A DNA stretch of 64,000 nucleotides from an uncultured Candidatus Saccharibacteria bacterium (GTDB lineage: Bacteria; Patescibacteriota; Dojkabacteria; SC72), in assembly GCA_964403155.1 (NCBI GenBank), contig CAYOEG010000002.1, positions 8,147-72,146 on the forward strand. Reading direction: 5' to 3'. The position numbers and the translations under genes are program-made. Below, in pieces: positions 2,960 through 49,119 of the stretch (its first letter is position 1; each line of letters begins with the position of its first letter). A model generated the notes under the pieces. That model ran no database searches. It saw only the letters and a program-made list of their open reading frames with translations, and was not told the DNA's origin.

Positions 2960-3757
2960 ATGGAAAATCCCCAATGGAACATACAAACCGAAGACCAAAA
3001 CAAAATTAAAAAAACTAGGATATGGATATCTGCCATATTTGCAGGCATAGGGATAATCATTATAGCGAGCCAAGTAGTACCACTAGCTAAATCTTACATA
3101 GACGGATTAATAGAACAAACCAGAGCAAACTCCAAAGTAGAACCAGTACCCGAATCATACAAAACATATATAGAATCACAATTAGCCTACTATGATCCAG
3201 GCAAAAGCTACTTCGCTAATCTCACATCACAGCTAGGAGTATTAGGAGTTTCAACAGAATATTACGATGTAACCACACAAACAGAGAAAGCAATTATCAT
3301 AGACAAGGATTATGCAACAAACATGGCCATCAATATTCCAAGCATAGGAATATCAAACATCAACATAACCCCAAACGTAGATAGCTACAATGAAGAAACA
3401 TACAACAAATACCTCAAACTAGGATTAGCACATTTCAGAGGAACTCCCTTGCCAGGAGATGGAGGTAACTCCTTCATATATGGTCACAGTGCAGTAGAAA
3501 CCTTCTTCAGTACACACCAAAACCTACCAGAGACAATCTTCTCAAGATTGAGTAATATAGAGGTGGGAGAAGAAGTAGATATAACTAAGGATGAAAAAGT
3601 ACTAAAGTATATCGTAAGAAGTAAAAAGATTGTCTCCCCTGATGACTTTTCCATACTAGAATCTCAAAATGGGAAAGAAACCTTAACCATGATGACTTGT
3701 TGGCCACTTGGCATAGGAACTAAAAGATTAATAGTAATAGCTGAAAGAACAATTTAA
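2960..3757 (+). CDS. sortase (membrane-anchored transpeptidase)
   Basis: N-terminal TM anchor; catalytic His (IYGHSAVE), TLTMMTCWP catalytic Cys motif (TLxTC) and downstream Arg (GTKRLIV), in the canonical H-C-R order. Confidence 0.7.
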   Translation: MENPQWNIQTEDQNKIKKTRIWISAIFAGIGIIIIASQVVPLAKSYIDGLIEQTRANSKVEPVPESYKTYIESQLAYYDPGKSYFANLTSQLGVLGVSTEYYDVTTQTEKAIIIDKDYATNMAINIPSIGISNINITPNVDSYNEETYNKYLKLGLAHFRGTPLPGDGGNSFIYGHSAVETFFSTHQNLPETIFSRLSNIEVGEEVDITKDEKVLKYIVRSKKIVSPDDFSILESQNGKETLTMMTCWPLGIGTKRLIVIAERTI

Positions 3758-3774
3758 AATATTAAAAAGAAGAT

Positions 3775-5112
3775 ATGACACTAGATCCGAAGAAGAAGAA
3801 ATTTGTATTAATTGGAAGTATTGCGTTGGGAATAATGGTTATACTTGCGGTAATACTTTTACTCGTTAAAACGAACTCTAACAAAAACGAGGAAGATGAG
3901 CTTGGTACCGCAGAGCTAGTATATTGGGGTCTGTGGGAACCATCATCTGTAATGCAACCACTCATAGATCAGTACGAATCAATGCATAATGGGATAACGA
4001 TTCTTTACTCTCAACAAACATATACTAACTACGAAAGCAGGTTGTATACAAGACTTCAGCAATCTACAACATCCTCAGAACCTGCACCTGATATCTTCAG
4101 AGTACACAGTACTTGGACTCCAAAATATTACAAATATCTCTACCCACTCCCAGCATCTACAATGTCCGCGAGTACGTATGCCAGCACTTTCTACCCTACT
4201 GCAGTTTCAGATTTTACAGCCAAAGATGGAAATATCTATGCAATGCCATTAGAAATCGATGGGTTAGTTGTGTATTACAACAAGCAAATTTTGGCAAAAG
4301 CTGGTGTTACAGAAGTCCCAACAGATTGGGATTCTTTCGTAGAATTAGCACAGAAGTTAACAATCAAAACATCTGCCGGGAAAATCACACAATCAGGATT
4401 AGCCATAGGGACCTCCTCAAATGTCACTAATTCTGCAGATATTCTCTCATTCCTAATGCTACAACAAGGAGTATCAATAATAGATGATGCTAGAACTACC
4501 GTTACTCTTAATACTACCAAGGTAAAAAGTGTTGTCGATACATACACAAGTTTTGCCGTCGGAGATGATGCCATATGGGATTCAAGTTTGGGATCTGATC
4601 TCAATATGTTCTACCAAGGAAAACTTGCAATGATGATAGCTCCAAGTTGGACAGCGTTTGATATCTTACAATCTGCTACTACAATTGAATTCGGGATGGC
4701 TAAATTACCACAATTAGGTGCAAATGAAGATGCCGTCTACTACTCTACCTACTGGGGAGAAGCTGTAAGCAAAAATTGTAGTAATCCTAAAGCTGCATGG
4801 GATTTCATAAACTTTTTAGCACAGAAAGAACAACAGAAAACGCTATTCTCTAATGCTGCAAAGATACGAGCATTCGGAGAGCCATATTCATTAGTTGAGC
4901 TTAACAGTACGCTTGGGGAGAATACATACCTCACCGCAATTGCAGAATCTGCACCTCAGATGAAATCTTGGCCAATGGGAGATGAATCATTTGTAAAAGC
5001 AACATTAAACGAAATGATTACGAGTATTGTAGAAGATGGAACTAACACACAAGTTGCATTAAAAGCAGCAGAAGAAGAAATCAATACACAACTTGCAGAA
5101 ACTAATAAATAA
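3775..5112 (+). CDS. extracellular solute-binding protein, ABC-transporter family 1-like (membrane-anchored); no cognate permease or ATPase nearby
   Basis: N-terminal TM anchor followed by LVYWGLWEP ... PDIFRVHSTW, resembling sugar-type SBP_bac_1 proteins; about 445 aa. Confidence 0.5.
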   Translation: MTLDPKKKKFVLIGSIALGIMVILAVILLLVKTNSNKNEEDELGTAELVYWGLWEPSSVMQPLIDQYESMHNGITILYSQQTYTNYESRLYTRLQQSTTSSEPAPDIFRVHSTWTPKYYKYLYPLPASTMSASTYASTFYPTAVSDFTAKDGNIYAMPLEIDGLVVYYNKQILAKAGVTEVPTDWDSFVELAQKLTIKTSAGKITQSGLAIGTSSNVTNSADILSFLMLQQGVSIIDDARTTVTLNTTKVKSVVDTYTSFAVGDDAIWDSSLGSDLNMFYQGKLAMMIAPSWTAFDILQSATTIEFGMAKLPQLGANEDAVYYSTYWGEAVSKNCSNPKAAWDFINFLAQKEQQKTLFSNAAKIRAFGEPYSLVELNSTLGENTYLTAIAESAPQMKSWPMGDESFVKATLNEMITSIVEDGTNTQVALKAAEEEINTQLAETNK

Positions 5113-5129
5113 TCGCTATTATATACTTA

Positions 5130-7271
5130 ATGAAATTTCGAAATGCCCCAAGAAAATCCAAAAAGTTTTTAACCATATATCTGACTTTTTTCCTTCTGTT
5201 ATCAATCCCACTTGTAACGTGGGGAGTTGTTACAGGATCCTTTGATTTAAGAAATTTCGCCTTCGATGATCTTGTCGTTAGTGATGAGAATCCCTGTATA
5301 ATTTCACTCCCAAATGTTAATCCATACACCCTTGAGGTTGGTAAAAGTATAACGGTACAGGTAGATGCAGAAATTAAGGATTCGGGCATTGCAGAATTAA
5401 GAATAGTAGATTCAAAGGGGAATGCAATTCATACAGAAACATTTGATGATGCACCAATAACTCTAGCAACTAGTTTCAAATTCACACCTATGTCCTCAGG
5501 AATAGTTGATATGTTGGGAATGATAAAAAAGGTTGGAGGTGGAAGTGTCGCTTGTAAAATTAGTAGCGCATATGATGTATTAGGATTAAAAGCTTTAGCA
5601 AATAATAGTGCACCAGAATTTACAACCGTACCTGCTGGCTCCAAACCATCACAGGATATTACAACAGAAACTACATACGAATATACACTTGAGGCTAAGG
5701 ATGTTGATGGGGATCGTATAAACTACTCATATTCTTTTACAAAAGGTAATGCTTGGCTCAAGCCAACAGTTATTGAAGATGGATCAAATGGGAGTCTAAC
5801 CATAAAGTTCCAAGGTTCAACAGATGTGGCAGGAAGCTATCTCGCCAACGTATTCATCCACGATGGATACAGTAAGCATCTTGATGGGCAAGCATGGGTT
5901 ATAAGTGTAAGCCCAAGTCAAAACGATGTTCCACTAGTCAGGATTATTACACCATACTCTGCAACCTCGGTTAATCAGGGTTCCCCTATAAGCATCTCAT
6001 GGGAAGCATCTGATTTAAATCTAATTACAAAATATTCCATCTCTTTAGCAGAGAATCCCGCAGATGAAGATAGTTGGATACCTGTAAACACAAGTATTTC
6101 TGCACAAACAAATTCATATTTAATAAATACTTCAAATATCCCAAGCGGAGTATATAAGATTGTCGTAAGAGCTACAGATAATCAGACACCTGCATTAACA
6201 GGGACTACCGTATCCGCTCCCATCACAATCATCGGATCATCGAACCCCAATGAAGAAGATGATGTAGCCATAATTGCAGATCCACAAGTCACCAACATGA
6301 CCCCTACTACATCAGATACCATCTTTAACAAGCAGGTAACTATAAAAGCAACTTTAATTGCTGGAACAAATGCCAAAATAAAGGATGATACTGTTGCTAT
6401 CAAGTTAGACGATAAGAACATTACTGAAGAGGTTAGTATTAACAAGATATCTGATACAGAGCATACGATAATATATCAGACAGAAGAGGATCTCACAGTT
6501 GGGTTACATAAGGTCGAGGCTACTTTTGAAGATACAAATGGAAATACTGTAGAAAAGGATTGGACATTTACTATTCTCGAGGATGAGACACAAGTTGCAG
6601 AGGGCTATGTAAAGCTTTTTGGATACCAGGTAAGTCAAAGGACATTGATAATAATCGGGATTGGTATTTTAGTGGTAATAATCGCCATAGTAGCCCCAAT
6701 AATTATTTTCTCAGTATGGAAAGAGGAGCAGAAAAAGAAAGATTCTGAACCTGAAGATAAAGGATATCTCCCAAATATTCCTTCAGAACCAGTACCTACA
6801 GCAGATGTAAGTATTAATGATGTTAGAAATCTTGTGCAAACAGAACCTGAGGTAAAAGAAGAAGAAAAGAAACAAGATGTATGGGATAACTATGCAGCAC
6901 CAACTCCAATAAAAACACCTAAAGAAACAATTGTCATACCCGAACCTGAAGTAGAGATTCCAGCACCCATTGTAGAACCAGAACCAAAGGTAGAGGAAGT
7001 CATTCTAGAATCTGTGCAAACAACTACTCCTACTCCAGTAATCGAGCCAGAAGTAGTTCAACCAACAGTACCTGAGGTTGTGGAGGAGAAGACTCCTGAA
7101 CCAGAGCCAATAGTTACAGAAGTTCCACAACCAACAACGGAAGAAGCTCCTATGCCTACCCCACCTGAGCCAGATCTCTCACAAGACTTGGATCAAACAG
7201 ATGAATTAATGGCAATATATGAACAGATCCAACAGTCAAATCAAGAGGAAACTCCAAAGAATAGCCAATAG
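5130..7271 (+). CDS. type I membrane surface protein with Ig-like/He_PIG (cadherin-like) ectodomains and a Pro/Glu-rich tail
   Basis: Signal/anchor sequence; He_PIG-like motif TTETTYEYTLEAKDVDGDRINYSYSF; TM helix IIIGIGILVVIIAIVAPIIIFSVW; about 200 aa of PEPEV-type low-complexity C-terminus. Confidence 0.6.
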   Translation: MKFRNAPRKSKKFLTIYLTFFLLLSIPLVTWGVVTGSFDLRNFAFDDLVVSDENPCIISLPNVNPYTLEVGKSITVQVDAEIKDSGIAELRIVDSKGNAIHTETFDDAPITLATSFKFTPMSSGIVDMLGMIKKVGGGSVACKISSAYDVLGLKALANNSAPEFTTVPAGSKPSQDITTETTYEYTLEAKDVDGDRINYSYSFTKGNAWLKPTVIEDGSNGSLTIKFQGSTDVAGSYLANVFIHDGYSKHLDGQAWVISVSPSQNDVPLVRIITPYSATSVNQGSPISISWEASDLNLITKYSISLAENPADEDSWIPVNTSISAQTNSYLINTSNIPSGVYKIVVRATDNQTPALTGTTVSAPITIIGSSNPNEEDDVAIIADPQVTNMTPTTSDTIFNKQVTIKATLIAGTNAKIKDDTVAIKLDDKNITEEVSINKISDTEHTIIYQTEEDLTVGLHKVEATFEDTNGNTVEKDWTFTILEDETQVAEGYVKLFGYQVSQRTLIIIGIGILVVIIAIVAPIIIFSVWKEEQKKKDSEPEDKGYLPNIPSEPVPTADVSINDVRNLVQTEPEVKEEEKKQDVWDNYAAPTPIKTPKETIVIPEPEVEIPAPIVEPEPKVEEVILESVQTTTPTPVIEPEVVQPTVPEVVEEKTPEPEPIVTEVPQPTTEEAPMPTPPEPDLSQDLDQTDELMAIYEQIQQSNQEETPKNSQ
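6700..7200 (+). repeat. low-complexity Pro/Glu/Val-rich coding repeat (gaacc(a/t)gaa units) inside the 5130-7271 CDS
   Basis: Repeated PEPE/PEVE/PTPV peptide units visible in the translation and as reiterated gaaccagaa/cctgaa DNA motifs. Confidence 0.4.
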
Positions 7272-34610: not shown

Positions 34611-36416
34611 CTAATTCTCTTTTACAATCTTGTAGAATTTACCTTTTTTCTTCGTCAATTCATCCCAACTTCCAGATTCTACTATTTTGCCATTTTCAAA
34701 GAAGTAGATCTTATCAAACATTTCTAAGTTCTCGATACTTCTAGTTATATATATTAACGTTTTTTCCTCACCTATGAAGTCCAAAATATTATTAAGAATA
34801 GTGTCTTTGGATTCTGAATCTATGAATGTAAATGCTTCGTCCATCACGAAAATCTTTCTGTTACGATACAACATTCTTGAAATTGCAAGTCTTTGCCAGT
34901 ATCCCCATGGAAGTTCTTTTCCACCCGGGAAGGTTTTACCTAGGATTCTTTCATCGTCTATCCCTTCTTTCACCAAAAGATCTTTTACCAGGCCAATTTT
35001 AGACACAGATTCATACAATTTTTTATCAATATTTTTCCTTTCTCCAGATATAACAACATTCTCCCTCACGCTAAAGTTGTAATTAATGAAATCCTGGAAA
35101 GTGACGGCTATTTTCTTTTTCAGTTGTCCTCTATCCAGATCTTTGACAGAGATATCATCTAATAGATAGTCACCTTTTTTAATCTGATACAAACCAGAGA
35201 GTATCTTCACCATCGTACTTTTGCCAGAACCATCCCCTCCAAAGAATGCAACCTTCTCACCAGGTTTTACTACTAAATCAATATGCTTTAGGACCATTGT
35301 TTTAGGATCATCTGGGTATGAAAAACTTAAATTCTTAAACTCAATTTCAGGCGTACCTTTCTTCAATTTCAGAGTGCCATGTTCATGATCGCCAAATCCT
35401 TCGTAATTCATTAGTTCAAAGAATTTCTCATCATATCCCAAAAGTGCAGATATATATGACATGGAATCAAATATGTTGTACACACTCGTATAGGTCATAT
35501 CGATATAGTCATACAAAGCTTTAAAAGTACCCAAAGAGTGTTTTCTTACAATTGCCACAGAGAGCATGTATATCACATACATAAACTTTAGACATTGACC
35601 AAAGATATTTACAATTGTTCTATCTCGGTACATATTTGCATCCGTCTTCAAATACCCCTTCAGAAACTCGTCATATTCTTCTACGTATCTTCTCTTAAGA
35701 TATGCAAAGGTATCATTGACCCTTAATTCAAGGAAGTTAGATATCTGGAGTGTCACATTTAAAAGATAGTTCAGATATTTAAGTTTACTTACATTTTCAT
35801 CCTGATATCCACGGATTTTCTTTCTCCTGATATGAACAACTACAATTTGCGGCAGTACAAAAAGGATCAAGAATAGCACAGACCAACTCATTGTCTCGAA
35901 TATTATAATTGCAGTGCTGATGATTTTAACTGCATTACCAACAATTCCAGAGAAGCTATCATACGTAAGTATCATCCTGTCTATTGAATATGCAGGTGCG
36001 TAGGTGAGTAAATCTTGGAATTTCTCCTGCTCAACATCTTGCAGGTTGGATTGAGATACTTTTGCCACCATCATATACCTAGCATCCTCCCAAACTTTTT
36101 CATAGATAACTGTGTACAAATGTAATCTTGCTTGATTACATGCCTGTAGAATTGACCATAGTACAAAGATCATGGCTATATACATAAATGCATCTGAGCT
36201 CCAAAATAGGTCCAAAGAAAATGAATTCCAATTTAAAAGGATTTTAGCTACTTCATCGATGAATTTTCCCAAGACCGTTATGCTATATACCTCTGAAAAA
36301 GTACCTAATACAAATAGGATATCTCTCGCAATTACCGTAAATGTATATCGCCCATACATAAATTTGAGTACATTTCCCAAAGTAATGAGTTTTTGTCGAT
36401 ATTTTTGTAGAATCAT
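34611..36416 (-). CDS. ABC exporter, fused TMD-NBD (type I exporter-like) with degenerate signature and H-loop motifs
   Basis: Six-TM domain then NBD with Walker A GGDGSGKST, Walker B IFVMDEAFTFID, but signature ELPWGYWQRL instead of LSGGQRQR and ITRSIEN instead of the H-loop. Start placed at internal ATG (MILQKY...) because the longer ORF to 36500 would overlap the divergent gene starting at 36431. Confidence 0.7.
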   Translation of the reverse strand: MILQKYRQKLITLGNVLKFMYGRYTFTVIARDILFVLGTFSEVYSITVLGKFIDEVAKILLNWNSFSLDLFWSSDAFMYIAMIFVLWSILQACNQARLHLYTVIYEKVWEDARYMMVAKVSQSNLQDVEQEKFQDLLTYAPAYSIDRMILTYDSFSGIVGNAVKIISTAIIIFETMSWSVLFLILFVLPQIVVVHIRRKKIRGYQDENVSKLKYLNYLLNVTLQISNFLELRVNDTFAYLKRRYVEEYDEFLKGYLKTDANMYRDRTIVNIFGQCLKFMYVIYMLSVAIVRKHSLGTFKALYDYIDMTYTSVYNIFDSMSYISALLGYDEKFFELMNYEGFGDHEHGTLKLKKGTPEIEFKNLSFSYPDDPKTMVLKHIDLVVKPGEKVAFFGGDGSGKSTMVKILSGLYQIKKGDYLLDDISVKDLDRGQLKKKIAVTFQDFINYNFSVRENVVISGERKNIDKKLYESVSKIGLVKDLLVKEGIDDERILGKTFPGGKELPWGYWQRLAISRMLYRNRKIFVMDEAFTFIDSESKDTILNNILDFIGEEKTLIYITRSIENLEMFDKIYFFENGKIVESGSWDELTKKKGKFYKIVKEN

Positions 36417-36430
36417 TAGAATATAATAAC

Positions 36431-36904
36431 ATGAGAGATAGAAAATATTTAGAAAATTTAATGTATGAACTTTGGGAAAATCATTTTTGCGATATCCCAA
36501 GGAAGAATATGGTGTTGATAAAGTTTGGGAAGTATTCTAAGAGACAGCTTGGTAGTATAAAGCTTGCTAATGAATATACTAAGATCAAGAGTTTGATGAA
36601 GAAGAATGAGAAAGAATACGAGATGCAAGATGATGGAAGAGTTACAGTCATAACTATGACAAAATATTTTCAAAATGAAATTGTTCCAGAATTTGTCGTA
36701 AGAGCAACGATCGCACATGAGCTATGTCATTACGCACATGGTTTTAGTTCTCCTTTGGATAAACAATTTGATAAACCGCACCAAGGGAATGTCATAAATA
36801 AGGAATTGGCTAGGAGAGAGTTGTTAGATGAGCAGAAGCTTGCAGACAAGTGGTTGAAAGACAACTGGGTCTCAATTGTGTATCCATTGAGCAAGTCTTT
36901 TTAA
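36431..36904 (+). CDS. small HExxH zinc-metallopeptidase-like protein (ImmA/IrrE- or SprT/DUF45-like)
   Basis: IAHELCHYAHG HExxH motif in a 157-aa protein; located directly upstream of an XRE-family regulator. Confidence 0.5.
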   Translation: MRDRKYLENLMYELWENHFCDIPRKNMVLIKFGKYSKRQLGSIKLANEYTKIKSLMKKNEKEYEMQDDGRVTVITMTKYFQNEIVPEFVVRATIAHELCHYAHGFSSPLDKQFDKPHQGNVINKELARRELLDEQKLADKWLKDNWVSIVYPLSKSF

Positions 36905-37025
36905 TATTCTAATATCGTTTATATTTGCTTTCTTCCTATTTTTTATTCTTTTGTAAAGAATTTCGAATTGTTGATATATTCCCATCCTTCTATTATCACA
37001 TTTTATTCTTTCATTTTCTTTTCAG

Positions 37026-37046
37026 ATATGACGCCAAGCGTCTTTT
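37026..37046 (+). terminator. putative intrinsic terminator after the HExxH gene
   Basis: GACGC-caa-GCGTC stem followed by TTTTAAAC. Confidence 0.35.
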
Positions 37047-37102
37047 AAACGACATGCCGTTCTATTCTTTATTCTTTTTAATGTAACTACAATTCTATAT
37101 AT

Positions 37103-37621
37103 ATGAACAATAATTATATTGGTGAGAACATTAAGATATATCGGGAGCGACAGAAGCTTACACAACAGCAATTAGCTGACAAAATTGGTAAGACATGGGA
37201 AATGATTTCTAGATATGAGAGAGGTGTGAGTTCCCCATTAAACCAACTAGATCCTTTAGCTAAGGCTTTAAATACTACCCCTTCTGATTTGTTGAATGAT
37301 ATTACTGAAAAGAATATTAAATTGAATTTTAATAGGGCTCCATTTTTTACAAATGATTCTAAAGACTTTAAAAAAGAAGATACCTACCTTTTCTACAATA
37401 CTCCAGATTGGATTTTGAGTTTGGATCCTAATGTTTTTGCCATTGATATGAAAATCGTTGATGGAACAAATGGTGTTGCTTTTATCTCTCCTAATTCAGA
37501 AATTAATATGAATGACATGGTTTTGATTAGAGAGGAAAACCAACTAAGGATTGTTATACTTAAGTCATTTAATAATATTGAGATTATTGGGAAGGTATTA
37601 GCGCAAGAGGTTAGATTCTAG
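37103..37621 (+). CDS. XRE-family HTH transcriptional regulator with cI/LexA-like (S24-like, probably non-catalytic) C-terminal domain
   Basis: N-terminal Cro/C1 HTH (IKIYRERQKLTQQQLADKIGKTWEMISRYERG). C-terminal beta domain AIDMKIVDGTNGVAFISP...NDMVLIRE...RIVILK aligns with the LexA/cI fold, but the GDSM serine is replaced (AIDM). Confidence 0.6.
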   Translation: MNNNYIGENIKIYRERQKLTQQQLADKIGKTWEMISRYERGVSSPLNQLDPLAKALNTTPSDLLNDITEKNIKLNFNRAPFFTNDSKDFKKEDTYLFYNTPDWILSLDPNVFAIDMKIVDGTNGVAFISPNSEINMNDMVLIREENQLRIVILKSFNNIEIIGKVLAQEVRF

Positions 37622-37640
37622 GTGTGATATAATTTGCATT

Positions 37641-38318
37641 ATGATAGAAGAATTCCCGAATACAACAGATGCTCATTCCAATAGTTATATTGAGAAATCC
37701 TCTTCAAATAGTTACTATGATCCCATAAACGAATCAGTAGATTATGCAAGATTTGTAGAAGATATAAGGACTTCCGTGGGTGTTGATCGTGATAAAGTAG
37801 TGCAATACCTTTCAAATGATTTGCTCTCTATACAAAAAGATTCCCCACTCCCTATTTCATACTCAGATACCAGTGATGATAATGTTAGACTTATGCAAGA
37901 GAAGCTTGCGGATTTAGGTTCGTCAGAAACACCTCTTAGAAACCAAAGCTTTCTTTCAGCACGTTCACTTACAATTTCCACATTCAGAGCATTACAGATT
38001 ATGCTTCCAGTTGTAAAAGGTTTTAGGTTAAGGGTACAGAATCCAGAGGAAATACTAGAAACGATTGTTAGCGACCAGTTATTGAAGCAGACTACTAAGA
38101 AGACTGATACTTTTGATGAAAGCGATATGAGAGAACCTGTAATGAATACAAATAATGTCCTCATATCATCCTCTTTAGATGCTTTTGCAAGAGAGAATAA
38201 GATACCTGTAAATGAGAATGGAAAAGTAACTTCAAAAGAGATTGGCACAATTGTTCTACCAACTGTCAGAAAGCTTATTATGAACATAGCAAGGAGAACA
38301 CCTGCGTTTAAAAAATAA
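37641..38318 (+). CDS. hypothetical protein (third gene of the HExxH-XRE cluster)
   Basis: 225-aa ORF, no recognisable motifs; 20 nt downstream of the XRE gene. Confidence 0.4.
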   Translation: MIEEFPNTTDAHSNSYIEKSSSNSYYDPINESVDYARFVEDIRTSVGVDRDKVVQYLSNDLLSIQKDSPLPISYSDTSDDNVRLMQEKLADLGSSETPLRNQSFLSARSLTISTFRALQIMLPVVKGFRLRVQNPEEILETIVSDQLLKQTTKKTDTFDESDMREPVMNTNNVLISSSLDAFARENKIPVNENGKVTSKEIGTIVLPTVRKLIMNIARRTPAFKK

Positions 38319-38320
38319 CA

Positions 38321-38346
38321 AAAGAGGAGGTTTTCACCTCCTCTTC
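38321..38346. terminator. bidirectional intrinsic terminator between the 37641 gene and groEL
   Basis: AGAGGAGG-ttttca-CCTCCTCT perfect 8-bp stem, with A-run on one side and T-rich on the other. Confidence 0.6.
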
Positions 38347-38357
38347 ATTAACGAAGA

Positions 38358-39980
38358 TTACATCATCCCACCCATTCCCATATCAGGTGCCATAGGTGCT
38401 TTATCCTTCTCTTCTGGTAAATCTGCGACTACTGCCTCCGTAGTAATCAACATAGTACCTACAGAAGCTGCATTAACCAACGCTAACCTAGTAACCTTAA
38501 CAGGATCTATAATACCAGTCTTAATCATATCCACATATTCACCAGTCTTTGCATTATACCCAGTATTATCATGACAATTAGCAGCCACCACAGCACCATC
38601 TTCTCCAGCATTCTCTGCAATCTGTTTCAATGGTTCACTTAATACAGTCTTGAGTATTTCTATACCCATCTGCTCATCAACATCATCTAGCTTAATATCA
38701 TTTAAAACAGCTTTAGCATTATGAAGTGCTAAACCACCACCAACAACAATTCCTTCCTCTATCGCAGCACGAGTAGCATGGATAGCATCTTCAATCCTCG
38801 CTTTCTTCTCCTTAGCTTCAGACTCGGAAGCAGCACCTACCATGATCACTGCCACACCACCATTAAGTTTAGCTAGTCTTTCCTGTAATTTCTCTCTATC
38901 ATAGTCAGAAGTTGTCTTTTCAATCTGTGCTTTGATCTCCTTTGCTCTCTCTTTAACATCAGATGCTAAGCCCTTCCCTTCCACAATGATTGTACTCTCT
39001 TTAGAAATCACAACCTTCTTTGCAGAACCTAGGTCTGCAAGTTCTACAGCTTCTAAAGTATTACCTAATTCCTCAGATACAAACTTTGCACCTGTTAATA
39101 CTGCGATATCTTTAAGCATCTCCTTCTTTCTATCACCAAACCCTGGAGCCTTAACTGCTACAACATCCAATGTACCTCTTAATTTATTAACTACTAAAGT
39201 TGCTAATGCTTGATTCTCAATATCATCAGCAATAATGACCAATGGTCTATCTGCAGCACTTAACACTTTCTCTGCAATAGCTTGAATATCTTGAAGATTT
39301 GAAAGCTTCTTATCTGTTACAAAGATATATGGATTCTCCATACTTGCTTCCAATGTCTCTCTATCTGTAACAAAATATGCACTTACATAACCATTATCAA
39401 ATTCCATACCCTCAGTATATTCAACCTCATCTGCAAAACCCTTTGCTTCCTCAACTGTTATTACTCCATCTTTACCCACCTTATCAAATACACCACCAAT
39501 CATATCCCCCAATTCCTTGTCATTATTTGTAGAGATCGTTGCAACCTGAGAAATCTCTTCCTTCTTAGAAATCTTTTTTGCAGATTTTCTTAATTCTTTT
39601 TCAACTAATTCCACACCCTTATCTATACCCCTCTTAATTGCAATTGGATTTGCACCTGCAGATACATTTCTAAAACCTGCATTTGCTATAGCTTGTGCCA
39701 ATACAGCAACTGTTGTGGTTCCATCACCTGCGAGATCATTTACTCTGTTAGATGCTTCTTTGATCATTTCAACTCCAACATTTTTAAATGGATCCTTGTC
39801 AGAAATCTCTTTTGCAACTGTTACACCATCTTTGGTAATAACTTGGGAACCAAATGATTTTGCAATTGCGACATTTCTTCCTTTGGGGCCTAATGTAGTT
39901 TTAACAACATTAGAGATAGTATCTACACCTGATTTTAAAGCTTTTCTTGCTTCTTCATTGTAAATTATTCCTTTTGACAT
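38358..39980 (-). CDS. groL: chaperonin GroEL (Hsp60)
   Basis: AAVEEGIVVGGG, DGTTTVAVLAQAI, C-terminal GGMGGMM tail; 540 aa. Confidence 0.97.
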   Translation of the reverse strand: MSKGIIYNEEARKALKSGVDTISNVVKTTLGPKGRNVAIAKSFGSQVITKDGVTVAKEISDKDPFKNVGVEMIKEASNRVNDLAGDGTTTVAVLAQAIANAGFRNVSAGANPIAIKRGIDKGVELVEKELRKSAKKISKKEEISQVATISTNNDKELGDMIGGVFDKVGKDGVITVEEAKGFADEVEYTEGMEFDNGYVSAYFVTDRETLEASMENPYIFVTDKKLSNLQDIQAIAEKVLSAADRPLVIIADDIENQALATLVVNKLRGTLDVVAVKAPGFGDRKKEMLKDIAVLTGAKFVSEELGNTLEAVELADLGSAKKVVISKESTIIVEGKGLASDVKERAKEIKAQIEKTTSDYDREKLQERLAKLNGGVAVIMVGAASESEAKEKKARIEDAIHATRAAIEEGIVVGGGLALHNAKAVLNDIKLDDVDEQMGIEILKTVLSEPLKQIAENAGEDGAVVAANCHDNTGYNAKTGEYVDMIKTGIIDPVKVTRLALVNAASVGTMLITTEAVVADLPEEKDKAPMAPDMGMGGMM

Positions 39981-40313: not shown

Positions 40314-40369
40314 TTAGCAGATAAATTTAACGATTGCTAGAATTCTATCACGGCGGAAGACTTTGTCAA
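40314..40369 (-). promoter_or_regulatory. groES-groEL promoter (TTGACA-16-TAGAAT) with adjacent CIRCE-like operator (TTAGCAGAT-N9-GATTGCTAG)
   Basis: On the minus strand: TTGACA (40364-40369), TAGAAT (40342-40347), then 1 nt and the CIRCE-like inverted repeat at 40314-40340, ending 5 nt before the groES ATG. Confidence 0.6.
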
Positions 40370-40371
40370 GC

Positions 40372-40956
40372 CTAAATAGTACCTTTTACCACTATTTTCT
40401 CTTCGAGAAGTTCTATATTCGTAATTGTTCTTCCAAGGAAGTTATTTTCACTAACAAGGATCAGGGCATCACTTATTCCCTTATTTATCTGTGTCTTAAG
40501 AGAACTTACAATTTTTTCTGGAATTAATTGATTTCCAACATAGATATTGGATACGTAGAGCTGAGCAGATTCTATGGAATCTTTTGATACATCAAGTCGA
40601 ATCCATGGAAGAGAAATATCTTGAAGATTGACCTTCACTAAGACATTCCAAACATCATCGTGCGGCATAACACAGACGTTCTCTATCATACCACCGTTGA
40701 TGATATTGGTATTTCCAAGTAGTAAAGCTGTTTCATCTGGATTAAGTTCTACAAAAGTAACATCCTCTTCTGAAAGCACGAAATCCTTAAATTTCTGGTC
40801 TAAGGATATGTCCGCAGAGAGATTACTTTTACAATGAAGCTGGGCCATCTCTTTTTGCAAATTACCTTGCCAAACAAAGTAAGAAATCACTGGGATGGAA
40901 ACTAAGCCAATTATCAAAAAGAATATTACTAACAAAACATTAAGCACTTTCTTCAT
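40372..40956 (-). CDS. hypothetical membrane-anchored protein (operonic with murJ)
   Basis: N-terminal TM LNVLLVIFFLIIGLVSIPVISYFVW; start overlaps the murJ 3' end. Confidence 0.4.
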   Translation of the reverse strand: MKKVLNVLLVIFFLIIGLVSIPVISYFVWQGNLQKEMAQLHCKSNLSADISLDQKFKDFVLSEEDVTFVELNPDETALLLGNTNIINGGMIENVCVMPHDDVWNVLVKVNLQDISLPWIRLDVSKDSIESAQLYVSNIYVGNQLIPEKIVSSLKTQINKGISDALILVSENNFLGRTITNIELLEEKIVVKGTI

Positions 40957-49064: not shown

Positions 49065-49119
49065 TTAGCAGATACTAAGATTAGGTGCTAAAGTATATGG
49101 TAGAAAATATGGAGAGTCA
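49065..49119 (-). promoter_or_regulatory. hrcA operon promoter (TTGACT-16-TATACT) with adjacent CIRCE-like operator (TTAGCAGAT-N9-AGGTGCTAA)
   Basis: On the minus strand: TTGACT (49114-49119), TATACT (49092-49097), then 1 nt and the CIRCE-like inverted repeat at 49065-49091, directly abutting the hrcA start codon. Confidence 0.55.

Follow-up and report, generated by a model that had tools for sequence, protein, structure and literature searches.

Proteases with an HExxH motif are encoded beside XRE-family regulators in ImmA/ImmR, IrrE/DdrO and CapP/CapH, where the regulator does not inactivate itself; the pairing of ImmA/IrrE proteins with an XRE partner is obligate and usually operonic. In DdrO and ImmR, which are substrates of COG2856 proteases, the C-terminal domain is helical and is cut in a loop (PMC6868357). 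LexA and lambda cI (S24) join a DNA-binding N-terminal domain to an S24-fold C-terminal domain bearing a Ser/Lys dyad, together with a cleavage site. A further set of phage repressors, 186 CI, TP901-1 CI/MOR and SPC32H Rep/Ant, lack the catalytic dyad, do not cleave themselves and face a divergent small gene across a short dyad-bearing region; 186 CI, TP901-1 CI and SPC32H Rep are inactivated by antirepressors. SprT-like proteins and minigluzincins (the SprT domain of Spartan, the WLM domain of Wss1, archaeal selecase, abylysin and jannalysin) are small soluble HExxH domains with a third histidine about 17 residues further on, and Wss1 and Spartan have been described as minigluzincins (PMC4559962).

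We analysed a locus in a 64-kb stretch of DNA (64,000 nucleotides; the window) from a small chromosome of Candidatus Dojkabacteria (WS6, Patescibacteria). It shares with ImmA/ImmR, IrrE/DdrO and CapP/CapH the layout of an HExxH gene adjoining a gene for a non-self-inactivating XRE regulator, but its protease is of another family, its repressor has a beta-rich, cI-like C-terminal domain, and the obligate, usually operonic pairing gives way to separate transcription units, a dispensable association and a core chromosomal position. The locus is likely to comprise several separately transcribed, probably leaderless genes of differing evolutionary behaviour, set between an ABC exporter and groESL, rather than one functional cassette. 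It is fairly ordinary, because a core SprT-like protease adjoins, rather than forming one mobile cassette with, a phage-type repressor module that has often been lost and a gene that evolves fast; the positive results are modest, with little to surprise a specialist. A false lead is removed all the same, in that an HExxH gene beside an XRE gene need not mean an ImmA/ImmR module.

Gene order and transcription units

The sequence-only reading had placed three ORFs between the ABC exporter and groEL, and all three are present, together with a small opposite-strand ORF that it had overlooked:

34611..36416, minus strand: ABC exporter gene, fused membrane and ATPase domains (Pfam ABC_tran, E 8e-23)
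36431..36904, plus strand: SprT-like/minigluzincin HExxH gene, 157 aa, with HELCHYAHG
36872..36985, minus strand: small basic ORF, 37 aa, pI 10.7, divergent from the XRE gene
37103..37621, plus strand: XRE/cI-type regulator gene, 172 aa
37641..38318, plus strand: acidic orphan gene, 225 aa, pI 5.2
38358..39980, minus strand: groEL, on the far flank of the three genes

The order ABC, HExxH, XRE, groEL is kept across the class in the Dojkabacteria loci compared, the flanks of the XRE locus are core genes in all genomes compared, and the GC content of the locus resembles that of its surroundings. The ABC exporter, whose start at ATG 36416 is backed by the ends of its homologues in loci L005 and L007, is a neighbour lying outside the unit of HExxH, XRE and 225-aa genes. 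A search for flanking direct repeats or att sites, proposed in the sequence-only reading, found none that was convincing around the locus; no tRNA gene lies between 28 and 46 kb of the window, and no integrase was found among the neighbouring ORFs.

The promoter and terminator elements at the two ends of the locus are as follows:

36393..36430, no strand assigned: compact divergent promoter region (promoter scan and sequence; putative function)
36393-36398 and 36417-36422, plus strand: HExxH promoter, -35 TTGTCG and -10 TAGAAT separated by 18 nt, with 8 nt from the -10 to ATG 36431
36423-36428, minus strand: hexamer TATTAT of the ABC promoter, 6 nt before ABC ATG 36416
38321..38346, no strand assigned: GC-rich hairpin, intrinsic terminator of groEL (dG -15.5/-18 kcal/mol, z about -5)

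Two hairpin terminators had been described as bounding the three genes. Only the hairpin at 38321-38346 is strong; it has a good U-run on the groEL strand only, and may also end the 225-aa transcript. The second, at 37030-37042, is internal, weak and not significant (dG -6.7, z -1.1) and overlaps a conserved dyad, while the 5' boundary is the divergent promoter. Likewise, the AT-rich 200-bp spacer that had been put upstream of the genes is in fact 198 bp long (36905-37102) and lies between the HExxH and XRE genes, where it contains the small minus-strand ORF and conserved control elements; an Rfam search of the spacer gave no match, so a structured RNA reading was dropped.

At the HExxH, XRE and 225-aa genes and at the small ORF, a -10 hexamer lies 6-9 nt before the ATG. 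TAnAAT hexamers in general peak 5-9 nt before start codons (13 in those five positions against 14 in the other 59), and Shine-Dalgarno motifs were found at only 4 of 46 ORFs. Because each gene has its own -10 close before its ATG, a geometry common in the genome, the genes are best regarded as separate, probably leaderless transcription units. Genes in this lineage start just after a -10 hexamer, with Shine-Dalgarno motifs nearly absent; the same commonness led us to reject leaderless geometry as a cI-like trait peculiar to the XRE gene. With a -10 of their own and evolutionary histories that differ, the HExxH, XRE and 225-aa genes do not form the single cassette that had been proposed.

The HExxH protease and its family

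The earlier assignment of the HExxH protein as ImmA/IrrE- or SprT-like survives in its second half only. As judged from its sequence, the protein is a SprT-like/minigluzincin zincin, not a member of COG2856/ImmA/IrrE. Peptidase_M78 (PF06114) gave no match at E up to 1, nor did NCBIfam, and the Pfam SprT-like profile (PF10263) matched weakly (14.8 bits, E 0.026), under its gathering cut-off of 25.6, which sets the window protein apart from the SprT-like members in Pfam. Among 70 relatives, 33 matched SprT-like at E ≤0.01 (best 8e-6) and two matched PF06114. Searched against the PDB at sequence level, the family returned only selecase (E 0.11).

The zinc site of this basic protein (pI 9.1) is built on the catalytic H96-E97-x-x-H100 and probably takes H117 as its third ligand. 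Across 70 diverse family members E97, H100 and H117 are invariant and H96 is nearly so, giving an HExxH motif and downstream ligand in a compact domain of 100-150 aa, with the histidine spacing of SprT-like proteins and minigluzincins. The predicted structure has the minigluzincin fold, with an N-terminal helix and a three-stranded sheet before the active-site helix, and is not closest to IrrE/CapP-type proteases; its loop 107-117 has pLDDT <50, and the zinc ligands were assigned from sequence rather than from the three-dimensional model. No signal peptide or membrane segment is evident in the sequence, and the tails by which Spartan and Wss1 bind DNA, ubiquitin or SUMO have no counterpart in the window protein.

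HExxH is a core gene of Dojkabacteria whose conservation equals that of SHMT and FolD: median identity to the window across the class is 81% for GroEL, 71% for SHMT, 70% for HExxH, 65% for FolD, 54% for the ABC exporter and 51% for XRE. In all 16 loci without XRE the HExxH gene is intact and keeps its motifs, with equal mean identity (67.7 versus 67.6%). Homologues number 615, of which the best 120 listed are 69-100% identical, and make up a small family of 166 clusters at 50% identity, the named members seen being all Patescibacteria; none was found among 2.9 million viral contigs of IMG/VR. In other Patescibacteria the homologues lie in unrelated contexts without this XRE partner, and no shared neighbourhood was found for the distant relatives. 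In two Saccharibacteria loci (L082 and L086) the HExxH gene overlaps a UvrD/PD-(D/E)XK helicase-nuclease gene. A second XRE association, a 250-aa XRE protein adjoining HExxH in L073 and L077, was set aside, only the HTH domain being common to that protein and the window XRE.

The HExxH protein would thus be a vertically inherited, soluble zinc protease with a job independent of the XRE protein, its role most likely being housekeeping or stress proteolysis, possibly of DNA-bound protein substrates by analogy with Spartan and Wss1. Indirect hints of a DNA-dependent activity on DNA-protein crosslinks come from the pI of 9.1 and from the gene overlap in L082 and L086. What emerges is a small SprT-like zincin family that falls outside current Pfam boundaries and is core to Dojkabacteria, and which is a possible candidate for proteolysis of bacterial DNA-protein crosslinks, or for stress proteolysis, in ultra-small symbionts.

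The XRE regulator, its control region and the small divergent ORF

The XRE protein has an HTH at about residues 4-64 (Pfam HTH_3, E 8.6e-11), a flexible linker at 69-75 and a beta-rich C-terminal domain at 78-172, the LexA/cI layout of a DNA-binding N-terminal domain followed by an S24-fold C-terminal domain. Its best structural matches are the phage repressors lambda cI, 186 CI, P22 c2 and SPC32H Rep, the C-terminal domain being also LexA-like, and colinear signposts link it to lambda cI (PLF with YPVF, ISPNSE..ND.VLI with LVDPEQ..GDFCI, and GKVLAQ with GKVIAS). The HTH is structurally near those of DdrO, ImmR and CapH, and weakly matches profiles of the antitoxin or defence regulators MqsA, HipB, CapH and RmrA, over the generic HTH domain only.

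While the two-domain layout and C-terminal fold are common to LexA and lambda cI, the dyad, the cleavage site and the S24 match are absent. Pfam S24 (PF00717) gave no match at E up to 1. Where lambda cI has S149 and K192, the aligned positions show no conserved Ser or Lys, the site corresponding to the Ser of GDSM being D, N, E, A or T in 32 orthologues; and residues 65-100 contain no AG or CG, with none conserved in the orthologue alignment. Autocleavage is not expected, because both the Ser/Lys dyad and the Ala-Gly site are missing. The structural matches and the missing dyad bear out the proposal of a cI/LexA-like domain that has lost its catalytic Ser. If the protein is inactivated at all, a protein partner would be the likely agent rather than RecA-stimulated autocleavage.

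The elements between the small ORF and the XRE gene are listed below, conservation having been taken from an information profile of 49 unique upstream regions:

36992..37000, minus strand: putative extended -10-like element TGTGATAAT, 6 nt before the small-ORF ATG, with a comparable hexamer in most other loci
37006..37067, plus strand: conserved control region between the two divergent -10 elements
37006-37013, plus strand: T-rich repeat TTCTTTCA, in the control region
37016-37024, plus strand: T-rich repeat TTCTTTTCA, in the control region
37041-37052, plus strand: dyad TCTTTTAAACGA, in the control region
37060-37067, plus strand: box TTCTATTC, in the control region
37088..37093, plus strand: -10 hexamer TACAAT of the XRE gene, 9 nt before the ATG, with no Shine-Dalgarno

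In these 49 regions a TTCTAT(T/A)C box stands exactly 20 nt before the -10 throughout the class, and a dyad of the type TTCwTw-N2-wAwGAA lies at about -58. As the -10 is 9 nt from the ATG and no Shine-Dalgarno motif is present, the XRE mRNA is probably leaderless or nearly so. The combination of box and -10 is unique in the 64-kb window; a wider XRE regulon within the window was considered and rejected, this combination and the dyads occurring at the XRE promoter only. The protein would self-associate through the beta domain and bind DNA by its N-terminal HTH, most likely at the TTC/GAA dyads and at the TTCTAT(T/A)C box that immediately precedes the weak -35 region of its own gene, although these elements could instead be promoter elements or sites of another factor.

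The small ORF, antisense at its 3' end to the last stretch of the HExxH gene, has its ATG 108-125 nt from the XRE ATG in 28 of 29 loci of the window's subclade, and its frame stays open over 35 codons or more in 23 of the 29, as against 0 and 5 for the other two frames. The encoded peptides align colinearly and look like two helices, with no invariant residues, and 23 of these small ORFs gave no consistent Pfam or PHROG family. In the deeper-branching subclade the ORF is absent and the gap between HExxH and XRE is only 55 nt. The window's subclade has a CI/Cro-type geometry of divergent start codons 115-120 nt apart, each with its own -10 and with conserved dyads between them, a layout resembling that of 186 CI, TP901-1 CI/MOR and SPC32H Rep/Ant. 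Unlike those switches, the module lies outside any prophage and keeps a single chromosomal site throughout a bacterial class, and no homology between the small ORF and Cro, MOR, Tum or Ant was detected. In this subclade, the XRE protein would control its own gene and the divergent small ORF as a two-gene switch.

Throughout the class, the position of the XRE gene and the elements upstream of it are the same, and its identity tracks that of the neighbouring core genes, pointing to old vertical inheritance. It adjoins HExxH in 48 of 64 Dojkabacteria loci and is missing from the other 16, on at least seven separate branches, presence being scored at loci rather than whole genomes, so that genomes lacking it here might hold a copy elsewhere. 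The XRE module appears to be dispensable. An ImmA/ImmR-like pair, as first suggested, does not fit a protease outside COG2856 that stays intact wherever XRE is lost; a SprT-like protease with an XRE gene conserved at the locus across the lineage is essentially the outcome that the sequence-only reading had itself set against its proposal. As a separate observation, the adjacency of HExxH and XRE in roughly three quarters of loci was counted against full independence of the two genes, and a functional link is possible.

The 225-aa gene, the variable slot and competing readings

The 225-aa protein had been described as belonging to no recognised family, and profile searches of Pfam, NCBIfam, PHROG, PADLOC and the PDB indeed gave no match. 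Its gene has only two close homologues, with distant ones (25-40% identical) in seven loci including L046, which lacks XRE, and it is absent from most XRE-bearing loci, among them L007, the window's closest relative. Its promoter is represented by one element:

37625..37633, plus strand: extended -10 TGATATAAT, own promoter of the 225-aa gene, 7 nt before the ATG

Most homologues keep the same -10 geometry, with weaker hexamers in L008 and L009. The gene would be a fast-evolving orphan accessory gene with its own strong promoter, and the slot between HExxH and groEL would hold different cargo in different genomes. Elsewhere this cargo includes Bro-N, AbiEii, a reverse transcriptase, RNHCP, a radical SAM enzyme and a true S24 LexA-like gene: a Bro-N gene of antirepressor type follows the small ORF in L001, an AbiE pair fills the slot in L057 and L063, and in L054 a true S24 LexA-like protein (PF00717, 8e-14) is encoded where XRE is missing. 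Of the three genes, HExxH persists without XRE in 16 of 64 loci, and the 225-aa gene is patchy and found without XRE in L046.

These data bear on several other accounts of the locus. If the XRE and 225-aa genes formed a toxin-antitoxin or abortive-infection pair, XRE being both antitoxin and regulator, this could explain two genes 19 bp apart on the same strand, the MqsA, HipB, CapH and RmrA profile matches and the AbiE pair in the same slot; those matches cover only the generic HTH, however, and with a promoter of its own, no PADLOC, Pfam or PHROG match, and a distribution that omits most XRE-bearing loci yet includes one without XRE, the 225-aa gene makes this account extremely improbable. 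Alternatively, the protease might partner the ABC exporter and stand beside XRE only incidentally, its task being, for instance, to process an exported substrate, to control its quality or to provide immunity for it. The two genes are divergent neighbours in every Dojkabacteria locus of sufficient reach, and their promoters interlock, because the start codons are only 14-35 nt apart; but adjacency is weak evidence in tiny, tightly packed genomes, outgroup homologues of HExxH lie away from the ABC gene, and the protein has no evident signal peptide or membrane segment, all of which leaves a partnership very improbable. The XRE gene, small ORF and 225-aa gene could also be a decayed, recent or mobile remnant of the immunity region of an integrated phage-like element rather than a fixed host regulator. 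Phage repressors as best structural matches, the divergent small gene, the Bro-N gene in L001, weak full-length XRE relatives in viral contigs and the variable slot all lean this way, against which stand the class-wide position and upstream elements of XRE, an identity that tracks core neighbours, an unremarkable GC content, the lack of flanking repeats, tRNA genes or a neighbouring integrase, and best viral matches only 28% identical. We consider a remnant of this kind unlikely; what holds of the mobile-element idea is the resemblance of XRE, small ORF and variable cargo to a phage-type regulatory module, here a repressor and small ORF fixed in the chromosome beside a variable gene slot.

We also weighed a stress switch of protease and repressor assembled from non-homologous parts, in which the SprT-like zincin, perhaps activated by damaged DNA like Spartan, cleaves or sequesters the XRE protein and derepresses its targets. 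The adjacency in 48 of 64 loci, with a 55-nt gap in the deep subclade, speaks for it, and a non-self-cleaving repressor beside a protease follows the logic of ImmA/ImmR, IrrE/DdrO and CapP/CapH; the C-terminal domain without an autocleavage dyad, the HTH resembling DdrO, ImmR and CapH, the self-cleaving LexA-like repressor filling the slot in L054, and the overlap with UvrD/PD-(D/E)XK in two Saccharibacteria loci, which hints at a DNA-damage context, are in keeping with it. Yet the protease is not COG2856/M78, the beta-rich C-terminal domain is unlike the helical ones of DdrO and ImmR (PMC6868357), XRE has been lost on at least seven branches with HExxH conservation unchanged, each gene has its own promoter, an ORF on the opposite strand separates the two in the window's subclade, and HExxH homologues outside the class lack this partner. 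Such a switch is quite unlikely, and it is very doubtful that the two proteins form a previously undescribed Dojkabacteria analogue of IrrE/DdrO or ImmA/ImmR, composed of a DNA-activated SprT-type protease and a beta-domain repressor, that replaces RecA/LexA-type control, with the LexA-like gene substituting in L054.

Control of groESL by the XRE protein was examined separately and rejected: the XRE gene is convergent with groEL, and the groES leader carries a motif of CIRCE geometry (the variant TAGCA-N15-TGCTA) that also lies upstream of dnaJ and hrcA, hrcA itself being present.

Locus layout and conserved gene order

The three open reading frames first recognized from the sequence alone were recovered at the same positions, all on the plus strand and flanked by an ABC exporter gene and groEL-groES.

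Features of the HExxH-groEL locus (window coordinates)
34611-36416, minus strand: ABC exporter gene
36431-36904, plus strand: HExxH gene, 157 aa, with the motif HELCHYAHG
36872-36985, minus strand: small ORF, 37 aa, pI 10.7, missed by the sequence-only reading
37103-37621, plus strand: XRE gene, 172 aa
37641-38318, plus strand: third gene, 225 aa
38358-40308, minus strand: groEL-groES
40372-40956: unassigned protein gene, 194 aa, between groES and murJ

Source names of the homologues place the host in Candidatus Dojkabacteria (WS6), a Patescibacteria/CPR lineage. Across the 86 homologous loci fetched from related genomes (L001-L086), the class-wide gene order is SHMT-FolD-ABC on the minus strand, HExxH on the plus strand and then groEL-groES-unknown-MurJ on the minus strand. 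Median identity to the window was highest for GroEL (81%), followed by SHMT (71%), HExxH (70%), FolD (65%) and MurJ (61%), with ABC (54%), XRE (51%) and the 225-aa gene (30%) at the lower end. The 194-aa protein, which gave no Pfam match, keeps its position class-wide at an identity of only 29-84%, and its gene and murJ overlap by 17 nt.

The boundaries proposed earlier had to be revised. Instead of two bounding hairpin terminators, we found one robust hairpin (38321-38346; dG -15.5/-18 kcal/mol, z about -5), which mainly serves groEL; the second candidate (37030-37042) is weak (z -1.1) and internal to the unit. Likewise, the AT-rich spacer described as lying upstream of the genes is a 198-bp interval separating the HExxH and XRE genes.

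The HExxH and XRE proteins

Searched against Pfam, the HExxH protein gave sub-threshold matches to SprT-like (E 0.026) and WLM (E 0.11) and none to Peptidase_M78; NCBIfam and PADLOC returned no match. A word-index search recovered 615 homologues, the best 120 of which are 69-100% identical. When 1.84 billion representatives were searched exhaustively with a profile, no more than 166 clusters carried the family, whose signature was not found in 2.9 million viral contigs. Among 70 diverse members, Pfam matches were SprT-like in 33, YgjP-like in four, WLM in two and M78 in two; four residues (E97, H100, G104 and H117) never vary, and H96 is nearly invariant. Because of this profile and conserved-residue evidence, and of the minigluzincin class that includes Wss1 and Spartan (PMC4559962), the protein is classified by sequence as a divergent SprT-like/minigluzincin zincin. 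The proposed comparison of ImmA/IrrE with SprT models thus favours the SprT-like side, ImmA/IrrE identity being ruled out by the absent M78 match and the SprT-like matches of its relatives.

The XRE protein matches HTH_3 (E 8.6e-11), with no Pfam S24 match, and its orthologues are full length, 38-90% identical and confined to the same lineage. In its AF2 model (pLDDT 89), five helices form the HTH domain, which a disordered linker (residues 69-75) joins to a beta-rich C-terminal domain. The Foldseek matches ranked first or close to it were full-length lambda cI, the lambda-186 hybrid repressor and T. maritima LexA; the C-terminal domain of lambda cI on its own was matched as well. An hhalign comparison with a lambda cI sequence entered by hand was weak (E 2e-3) and colinear across both domains. 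Conserved C-terminal residues are P80, F82, F89, Y98, P101, W103, D108, G124, G163 and E169; neither the Ser/Lys dyad nor the Ala-Gly site is conserved in the orthologue alignment. The earlier structural reading, a cI/LexA-like regulator with its catalytic Ser replaced, is upheld, and the protein should not cleave itself. It differs from the COG2856 substrates DdrO and ImmR, whose C-terminal domains are helical and cleaved in a loop (PMC6868357), in having a beta-rich C-terminal domain.

Relationship among the three genes

Among the 64 loci reaching groEL, XRE follows HExxH in 48; on a tree of the ABC, HExxH and GroEL sequences, at least seven separate branches lack it, in many of which only 54-150 nt separate HExxH from groEL. 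HExxH is full length with intact motifs in all 16 XRE-less loci, and its mean identity is 67.7% there versus 67.6% in XRE-bearing loci; the protease function is therefore probably independent of the XRE repressor.

Family and PDB searches of the 225-aa protein were empty, in agreement with its description as an unknown gene. It has two close homologues and distant ones (25-40% identity) at seven loci; in the closest relative, L007, which lacks the gene, the groEL terminator comes immediately after the stop codon of XRE. The HExxH-groEL interval in Dojkabacteria is a variable slot, whose other contents include RNHCP, AbiEii, reverse transcriptase, radical SAM enzyme and surface-protein-like genes. 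Individual loci carry a true Peptidase_S24 LexA-like repressor gene with a divergent 102-aa ORF (L054, 6473-7723), an AbiEii toxin with a partner gene (L057, 2727-7377; L063, 3322-4603) or a radical SAM enzyme (L043, 2007-4545). The L057 slot also holds a reverse transcriptase beside a repeat-rich 441-aa protein, and the two may form a diversity-generating retroelement.

Ahead of the 46 window ORFs that reach 150 aa or more, 13 TAnAAT hexamers fall within the five positions 5-9 nt before the start codon, against 14 in the other 59 positions, and Shine-Dalgarno motifs accompany four of the ORFs; this pattern points to leaderless mRNAs as the usual expression route of first genes in this genome. 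Each gene at the locus has its own putative -10 hexamer close before its ATG: TAGAAT at 8 nt (HExxH), TACAAT at 9 nt (XRE) and TGATATAAT at 7 nt (225-aa gene, the same geometry recurring in most homologues). This geometry argues against the three-gene cassette of the sequence-only reading and for separate, probably leaderless units rather than an operon. The start codons of the ABC exporter gene and of HExxH lie only 14 nt apart on opposite strands (36393-36431; 34-35 nt in L001 and L003), and their putative hexamers abut within this gap, each inside the other gene's hexamer-to-ATG spacer, so that the putative promoters must interlock and may compete.

Independent neighbours are the best explanation of the three genes, and we consider it probable. 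What was observed is essentially the outcome that was to speak against the sequence-only reading, with HExxH most likely a housekeeping SprT-like gene and XRE keeping its place at this locus throughout the lineage. A recent mobile remnant is unlikely, as neither tRNA genes, convincing flanking repeats nor a GC anomaly was found around it, the locus has no Rfam match, and no integrase was seen among neighbouring ORFs. A novel protease/repressor switch would draw on the frequent adjacency of HExxH and XRE; set against the intact HExxH genes of XRE-less loci, it is quite unlikely. Marginally less credible is a protease linked with the ABC exporter, its divergent neighbour throughout the class, and a toxin-antitoxin pair of XRE and the 225-aa gene, adjacent in the window, is very improbable, a distant homologue of the latter occurring in XRE-less L046.

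Putative regulatory elements and wider contexts

In 49 unique regions upstream of XRE, the -10 is preceded at exactly 20 nt by a TTCTAT(T/A)C box, the -35 region is poorly conserved, and a TTC/GAA dyad occurs at about -58 (window copy TCTTTTAAACGA, 37041-37052). Within the 64-kb window, only the XRE promoter combines this box with the -10. In 28 of the 29 loci of the window's subclade, the divergent small ORF has its ATG 108-125 nt away from that of XRE, a distance of 115-120 nt among the ORFs recovered as such, and most copies are closely preceded by their own -10-like hexamer. The frame of this ORF stays open over 35 codons or more in 23 of the 29 loci, versus 0 and 5 for the remaining frames. 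When aligned, the peptides look like a two-helix protein, with no family match. In L001 a Bro-N gene lies downstream of the small ORF, and in deeper-branching Dojkabacteria the HExxH-XRE gap is only 55 nt, without the ORF. The repressor, putatively binding the conserved elements, and the small protein would form an autoregulated phage-type switch.

Canonical CIRCE was absent from the window at up to three mismatches. TAGCA-N15-TGCTA, a degenerate CIRCE keeping its geometry and not its inner arms, has exactly three copies, immediately upstream of dnaJ (2547-2571), groES (40315-40339) and hrcA-grpE-dnaK (49066-49090), and looks like the HrcA operator variant of the lineage.

Outside Dojkabacteria, the HExxH gene occupies unrelated settings. 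In four loci of another Patescibacteria group (L073, 5510-7201; L077, 5401-7216; L079, 4378-5365; L053, 3893-4306) it lies directly 3' of a gene that is Hsp20-like by eye, which with groESL in Dojkabacteria makes a recurring chaperone neighbourhood; in L073 and L077 it also adjoins a different XRE gene sharing only the HTH domain with that of the window. In two Saccharibacteria (L082 and L086, both 3164-6483), the 5' end of the homologue overlaps the 3' end of a 940-aa UvrD/PD-(D/E)XK helicase-nuclease gene, a hint that the family may act in DNA repair; a nearby 358-aa ORF is RmuC-like by eye. Berkelbacteria-like genomes carry the gene within an eno...HIT-rpsU-yqeY-ybeY-dgkA neighbourhood, and more distant members are set among glycosyltransferase genes.
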